Assembly: GCA_913057685.1 (NCBI GenBank)
Contig: CAJXOA010000007.1
Span: 3,123 to 67,122, forward strand
Source: an uncultured Trueperaceae bacterium
GTDB taxonomy: Bacteria; Deinococcota; Deinococci; Deinococcales; Trueperaceae
Reading direction: 5' to 3'
Length of the DNA: 64,000 bases
Both the position numbers and the translations under genes were made by a program. The notes under the pieces were generated by a model. That model worked only from the letters and a program-made list of their open reading frames with translations, searched no databases and was not told the origin of the DNA. Shown here in pieces: positions 31,221 through 31,287 of the stretch; position 1 is the first letter of the stretch; every line of letters begins with the position of its first letter.

Positions 31221-31287
31221 GGGGGGGGGGGGGGGGGGGGGGGGGGGGGGGGGGGGGGGGGGGGGGGGGGGGGGGCGGGGGGGGGGG
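31221..31287. repeat. extreme homopolymer: G55, one C, then G11 on the + strand (C-tract on the transcribed minus strand)
   Basis: Counted directly: G at 31221-31275, C at 31276, G at 31277-31287. It lies between the csp stop (31344) and the helicase ATG (31139). GGGGCGCACC copies sit at 31211-31220 and 31316-31325, with the inverted copy at 31298-31307. Confidence 0.95.

Follow-up and report, generated by a model that had tools for sequence, protein, structure and literature searches.

A G55-C-G11 tract between a cold-shock gene and a DEAD-box helicase gene of a Trueperaceae metagenome-assembled genome as a probable assembly artefact over an ordinary G-rich spacer

The csp-helicase locus

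The window, by which the whole stretch of 64 kb analysed here is meant, corresponds to C7:3123-67122 of its source assembly (G000), a Trueperaceae-like metagenome-assembled genome of 2.29 Mb in 74 contigs with a GC content of 74.3%. Judged by the helicase, its closest named relatives are metagenome-assembled genomes of Trueperaceae, at about 65% identity. Read along the minus strand, csp is followed by a spacer, a DEAD-box helicase gene, and a GreA/GreB-like gene. The csp gene (31344..31568, minus strand) is an open reading frame for a cold-shock domain protein of 74 amino acids (Pfam CSD, E = 9e-32), which occurs as exactly the same protein on two contigs in ENA. The helicase gene (29805..31139, minus strand) encodes 444 amino acids with an Arg/Gly-rich tail (Pfam DEAD, E = 3e-49; Helicase_C, E = 7e-34), and 3' of it lies the GreA/GreB-like gene (29276..29773, minus strand; Pfam GreA_GreB, E = 6e-17), which is called at the same position on L136, one of the two ENA contigs. 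The Pfam assignments agree with the first-pass annotation, where the genes on either side of the spacer had been named csp and DEAD-box helicase.

Within the spacer the deposited sequence carries 55 consecutive G on the plus strand (31221-31275), a single C (31276), and 11 further G (31277-31287). This direct count reproduces exactly what had been read from the deposited sequence before. The resulting tract of 67 nt (31221..31287, without assigned strand), which is judged below to be an assembly artefact replacing a complex spacer of 67 nt, is separated by 56 nt from the csp stop codon (31344-31346), by 9 nt from a hairpin 3' of csp (31297-31326), and by 81 nt from the helicase ATG (31139). 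The distances to these three features that had been given earlier agree with these intervening lengths, as does the remark that the tract, measured at 55 plus 11 nt, far exceeds the 8-20 nt range of phase-variable tracts. No other homopolymer longer than 8 nt is present in the 64-kb window, and a run of 55 G is not attainable by chance in sequence of 75% GC. The 11-nt direct repeat GGGGCGCACCG, which had also been pointed out before, was found twice, at 31211-31221 and at 31316-31326, and a copy in reverse complement lies at 31297-31307.

The hairpin 3' of csp (31297..31326, minus strand) is a GC-rich inverted repeat, GGUGCGCCCCGG-AGGU-UCGGGGCGCACC, which is terminator-like and lacks a U tract. 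It is the dominant helix in the predicted fold of the conspecific spacer and is kept in the sister species G010, and six further members of the genus carry a different hairpin at this place. A second small hairpin, GGUGCGCC-CCGC-GGCGCGCC, is predicted at the start of the helicase leader (31200..31220, minus strand); it is kept in L136, in the second ENA contig L137, and in G010, and it includes a 10-nt copy of the 5' arm of the terminator. In the csp hairpin the 3' arm, GGGGCGCACC, has two possible pairing partners (31200-31326, minus strand), the 5' arm of the hairpin itself and, past the spacer, the 10-nt copy GGUGCGCCCC. As this arm fits two partners and the downstream copy is kept in the sister species, an alternative pairing across the spacer is possible. 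The sole match obtained with Rfam was the cspA thermoregulator at 31298-31604 (minus strand), which is located mostly over the csp coding region and is sub-threshold (40 bits against a gathering score of 78, E = 4e-8); the tract itself had no match in Rfam. Common to most members of the genus (L127-L134) is a helicase leader of the form AGTGCGACTTGGCTGG-N(8-11)-CCAGGAAGG, about 60 nt before the ATG, which forms a hairpin covering the Shine-Dalgarno region and also occurs in two genomes without csp upstream. The studied species and G010 have a diverged version of it. This conserved hairpin could be a switch in the helicase leader.

Comparison with conspecific and related genomes

Contigs of the same species were found by a look-up of the exact 74-amino-acid csp protein, which yielded two MEGAHIT-style contigs from two ENA metagenome assemblies, L136 (ERZ27241910, k141_275302) and L137 (ERZ27241896, k141_23866); the same kind of look-up with the helicase protein gave no match. 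Identity to the window is 98.7% over 5.1 kb for L136 and 98.3% over 3.5 kb for L137. Both contigs come from other samples and, with 1.3-1.7% divergence from the window, do not represent the same population, so that an allele specific to the sampled strain keeps a small probability. The csp-helicase spacer is 204 nt long in the window and in both contigs alike, and the flanks of the tract within it are 100% identical to the window, over 60 nt towards csp and over 77 nt towards the helicase gene. At the 67 positions of the tract the two contigs have instead the complex sequence CCCCCCGCACGACCCACCCCACCCTCCCCACCCCCTCGGTCCGTCCCCCGGACCCCACCCTTCATCG (mRNA sense), with 44 C, 8 G, 8 A, and 7 T, and they differ from each other within these 67 nt at two T/C sites. 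Between tract and conspecific sequence there are 23 mismatches in 67 positions, all of them towards the base of the homopolymer, against a background of about 1.7% (p ~1e-25). Such a number of changes to one single base does not fit neutral divergence.

Orthologues of the helicase were found in nine of ten other genomes of the genus, and csp lies directly upstream in seven of them. In the sister species G010 the helicase is 91% and csp 96% identical, sequence is kept on both sides of the position of the tract, and the position itself is occupied by a complex C-rich stretch of 87 nt. The blocks GCACGACCC, CCCCCTCGGTCCG, CCGGACCC, and TTCATTCGGGTGCGCCCC are common to this stretch and the conspecific spacer, which marks the complex version as the ancestral one on the strength of the shared blocks. 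The first-pass annotation had proposed to look for C/G tracts in the corresponding spacers of relatives, and this comparison turned out negative, as the spacer contains a homopolymer of at least 7 nt in none of the seven genus genomes with the gene pair, nor in L136 and L137. A scan of JGI metagenomes with a 26-nt flank conserved between the studied species and G010 gave no matches.

The first-pass annotation had offered as one reading a technical artefact, in view of two-colour poly-G and of a possible mis-join between the two GGGGCGCACCG direct repeats. The artefact part of this reading is borne out by the disagreement of the conspecific contigs, while the mis-join part is not supported. For such a join, with the junction filled by poly-G, it can be said that the repeats do exist at the two places (31211-31221 and 31316-31326). 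The repeats are native, however: the conspecific contigs have a 10-nt copy, GGTGCGCCCC (mRNA strand), at each of the two places, and the sister species has the downstream one. Sequence between and around the repeats is collinear with that of the conspecific contigs, with no deletion or rearrangement and with 204 nt against 204 nt. A join mediated by the repeats would, moreover, delete what lies between the copies, including the csp hairpin. This explanation is accordingly regarded as extremely improbable.

Further long tracts in the assembly and in related genomes

Long tracts of this type occur at three loci of the assembly, namely in the window, on contig C27, and on contig C62. The second tract, C33-G-C23, has a length of 57 nt (G000:C27:5769-5825). 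At its position two contigs of the same species with 99.4% identity (L166 and L167), one of which encodes an identical MacB-type permease of 432 amino acids as found by exact-protein look-up, carry the 19 nt CCCCACCCCTCCGCCCCCC. They have an intact OEP gene (477 amino acids), the ATG of which overlaps the stop codon of the permease. In the assembly the tract sits in the first codons of this OEP/TolC-like outer-membrane efflux gene, and the frame starting at the ATG stops after 65 codons.

The third tract, G47-C-G6, forms the start of a contig (G000:C62:1-54) and is contradicted both by contig C17 of the same assembly and by the conspecific contig L168. An exact-protein look-up with the LivH-like permease of this locus gave matches, and one with the binding protein of C62 gave none. 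L168 is unbroken and runs from a periplasmic binding-protein gene over a hairpin and a C-rich spacer to a LivH-type permease gene; it corresponds to the reverse complement of C62 followed by the reverse complement of C17. The true spacer, identical to L168, is located at G000:C17:42282-42390, while the head of C62 diverges into poly-G. Truth and artefact therefore coexist for one locus in one assembly, and C17 and C62 are genomic neighbours. In the last ~490 nt of C17 (G000:C17:42390-42877) the GC content drops to 54-71%, and judged by eye this tail appears to code for the C terminus of a glyceraldehyde-3-phosphate dehydrogenase. As it continues unlike the conspecific contig or the sister species, it looks chimeric, derived from another organism. 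Shorter runs in the same assembly, C12 at G000:C5:82720-82731, G14 at G000:C65:1068-1081, and C10 at the contig end G000:C18:41427-41436, could be real or artefacts.

The fastp paper (PMC6129281) describes poly-G tails of reads as an effect of two-colour Illumina chemistry, and the runs in related genomes, mostly located at contig ends or N10 gaps, give the usual picture of this artefact. Runs of at least 25 nt are present in only four of 40 related genomes, most of them at contig ends or beside N gaps, and a family-wide feature was rejected on these grounds. In genome G007 of the same genus (L116-L121), G/C runs of 26-34 nt occur six times, in five cases at contig ends or beside N10 gaps; one example, G24-N10-C28, has the orientation expected for reads fading into G from both sides. 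In G011 a C49 run stands at the start of a contig with 41% GC in a high-GC genome (G011:C410, L124), and this contig is probably contamination. An order-level relative (L122, G033:C4:158500-164500) has a C44 run at G033:C4:161519-161562, which is embedded in a CTCCCCA heptamer array with three clean copies per side, just upstream of an ATG on a contig of 3.28 Mb; possibly an artefact of this type has entered a near-complete genome, or else the repeat array is real.

Origin of the tract

A clue to the origin is provided by the ends of the contigs. Five pairs of them overlap, by exactly 77 nt in each case, and no overlap of any other length was found in the range of 15-200 nt, which indicates a de Bruijn assembler whose final k was 77. 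In the standard series of SPAdes for reads of 150 nt, k takes the values 21, 33, 55, and 77, and the contigs of each stage feed the next one. The assembler was very probably SPAdes with this series, of which 55 and 33 are intermediate k values. The complete long runs of 55 nt in the window and 33 nt on C27 coincide with them. Both lengths thus appear to be tied to the assembler, and this is strong evidence that it was the assembler and not the genome which fixed the run lengths. Together with the absence of the tract from two independent assemblies of the same species (L136 and L137), and with the finding that the other instances are wrong or located at contig ends (C27 and C62), this leads to the conclusion that the tract is, with high probability, an assembly artefact laid over an ordinary spacer which is G-rich on the plus strand. 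That the G55-C-G11 tract is not a real biological feature is almost certain; what had been observed is true of the deposited sequence and, as the comparison of contigs indicates, almost certainly false for the DNA of the organism.

As an alternative, the tract could be real in the sampled strain. A run of 55 or more G, which is C in the mRNA, or a longer run collapsed to k, would then have replaced the C-rich spacer; within the helicase leader it would be hypermutable or serve as an extreme element of the poly(C) Rho-loading or of the G4/i-motif type. In line with this, the tract is located inside a contig of 85 kb with correct and collinear flanks, a real run longer than k would likewise collapse to k, the right junction (poly-G, C, G11, flank) is unlike a simple read tail, such tracts occur at three loci of the genome, and Rho is encoded in it. 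Against these points stand the complex sequence at the position of the tract in two conspecific contigs and in the sister species, and the direction of the change, since all 23 of 23 differences lead to one base with flanks identical and length kept; to our knowledge, no mutational process converts 23 sites to one base and leaves flanks and length unchanged. On C27, furthermore, a conserved efflux gene loses its reading frame through the tract, contig C17 of this very assembly contradicts the C62 tract, two run lengths coincide with k values of the assembler, and in the seven relatives of the genus that have csp next to the helicase gene the spacer is free of homopolymers of 7 nt or more. We consider it very unlikely that the tract is real, and just as unlikely that run-away slippage has left the strain with homopolymers of at least 55 nt at three C-rich, G4-prone sites. 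If this were true, the helicase leader would be a poly(C) RNA of at least 67 nt, which could load Rho or vary in length.

The tract also does not behave like a phase-variable homopolymer. The contingency tracts of Neisseria, Haemophilus, Campylobacter, and Helicobacter measure about 8-20 nt, and their length varies between close strains. A G/C homopolymer in a promoter or leader or, as at C27, near the 5' end of the coding sequence for an outer-membrane protein, resembles these loci in position, but with 55 plus 11 nt the tract is far too long, and close strains have no homopolymer there at all instead of one of different length. Two functional readings had been put forward for the tract in the first-pass annotation, an extreme rut-like poly(C) site for Rho and a G-quadruplex or i-motif with slipped-strand length variation. 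Both fall with its absence from conspecific DNA; as the poly(C) is not real, the tract is not a poly(C) rut site.

How the artefact may have arisen can be outlined as follows. At all three tract sites the true sequence is very G-rich and G4-prone. Reads over such a stretch would be too few or too poor, so that the true path would be lost at high k. The assembler would then bridge the two true flanks via the poly-G node of the graph, and a single crossing of a homopolymer node would spell a run of exactly k, which would give G55 in the window and C33 at C27. The poly-G material most likely consisted of no-signal G calls of two-colour Illumina chemistry; abundant junk of this kind would have offered an alternative path of similar length, retained at an intermediate k and handed to the last stage. 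The graph operation responsible may have been bulge projection, gap closing, or read correction. With the poly-G artefacts known from two-colour instruments (NextSeq/NovaSeq) the present case shares long G/C runs without counterpart in independent assemblies, run lengths tied to k, and further runs at contig starts or ends and, in relatives, also by scaffold gaps. Unlike the usual poly-G tail at a contig end, the run in the window is internal and joins two correct flanks at the right total length, which is a rarer form.

Some details are at odds with the simplest model. Reads ending in a G tail account for the passage from the left flank to poly-G, and not for that from poly-G over C and G11 to the right flank on the same strand. 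Beside the right flank there are 11 G in the tract and six in the true sequence. In the window the tract has the length of the true spacer (67 against 67 nt), yet at C27 it has 57 nt against 19 nt; the agreement in the window may reflect a similar-length condition in bubble removal or may be a coincidence. An overwriting in register, by which each non-G base is turned into G with length kept, was rejected as a rule. It fits the 67 against 67 nt of the window and fails at C27 with 57 against 19 nt, and in the window the base that interrupts the run is shifted by 1 or 5 positions against the register. G-richness was rejected as a sufficient cause, as about 170 other windows of the genome with a G4Hunter score of at least 2.4 were assembled normally. 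A dispersed repeat tangling the graph was rejected too, as 15-mers shared with other places proved to be chance matches in C-rich sequence.

The true spacer

The true spacer, 67 nt long, lies between the csp hairpin and the helicase leader and contains on the mRNA strand 66% C and 12% G. The predicted centroid fold leaves it mostly unpaired except for one hairpin of 6 bp, GGUCCG-UCCCC-CGGACC. On the template strand there is a canonical G4 motif with loops of 1 nt, GGGGGTGGGGAGGGTGGGG in L137 (G4Hunter 2.84) and GGGAGTGGGGAGGGTGGGG in L136, so that four runs of at least three G with loops of 1-7 nt are present. At the orthologous site a G4 motif is absent from six of seven other genus genomes, G010 included, and the remaining one, G009, has an unrelated motif. 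The excess of C over G in the spacers of other members of the genus amounts to only 0.13-0.30 per 60 nt.

Poly(C) is the classical activator of Rho in vitro, and the sites at which Rho is utilised on RNA are called rut sites. The genome codes for a Rho_RNA_bind domain (G000:C2:14363-14578), matched at 91.6 bits, a score exceeding the family cut-off. It lies in an open frame of 837 amino acids (L169, G000:C2), about twice the length of Rho from E. coli, and this Rho probably has a long extra domain. The true spacer resembles rut sites in being a C-rich, G-poor, and weakly structured RNA within the range of about 60-80 nt past a stop codon (44 C and 8 G in 67 nt), in a genome which encodes Rho. 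It differs from the poly(C) activator in that pure poly(C) is not real here, and as judged from its sequence the true spacer is only moderately and putatively rut-like. For promoter-proximal G-quadruplex motifs a precedent has been described in Deinococcus radiodurans (PMC3592403, PMC12607872). The motif of the true spacer has in common with these the phylum and the canonical G3+N1 form upstream of a gene. Unlike them it is found on the template strand of an intergenic spacer, it is not conserved in the genus, and it is one of many in a genome of 74% GC.

A regulatory role of the true spacer, which would be compatible with the tract being an artefact, is conceivable in two forms. The C-rich RNA might load Rho and thereby attenuate read-through to the helicase gene, or the template G4 GGGGGTGGGGAGGGTGGGG might slow RNA polymerase. 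The composition of the spacer and the canonical motif with its G4Hunter score of 2.84 point in this direction, as do the predicted fold, in which most of the C-rich stretch is unpaired, the presence of Rho in the genome, and a second locus (C17/C62) at which a gene is likewise followed by a hairpin, a C-rich spacer, and another gene; G4 motifs have also been proposed as regulators in Deinococcus (PMC3592403). On the other hand, the G4 motif and the strong excess of C are specific to this species within the genus, and the about 170 comparable G-rich windows in a genome of 74% GC put the spacer near background. We regard a regulatory role as unlikely, and the true spacer is an ordinary sequence for a genome of 74% GC. 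The two functional readings of the tract are thus conceivable for the true spacer in much weaker versions, with 66% C, a G4 motif, and an encoded Rho, and not for the poly(C) tract itself.

Significance

The supposed poly(C)/G4 element between the cold-shock and the DEAD-box helicase genes is thus almost certainly absent from the organism, and the biological value of the observation is small. Its main use is that of a warning on data quality, as a genome that stands for its species in a GTDB-based collection contains no fewer than three poly-G/C blocks, one of them breaking the gene of an efflux protein, in addition to the apparently chimeric tail of C17. Two simple checks worked in this case, asking whether the run length equals a k value of the assembler, and looking up an exact protein in order to find conspecific contigs that disagree. 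Scans of high-GC metagenome-assembled genomes for homopolymers, G4 motifs, phase variation, or pseudogenes will catch such blocks.
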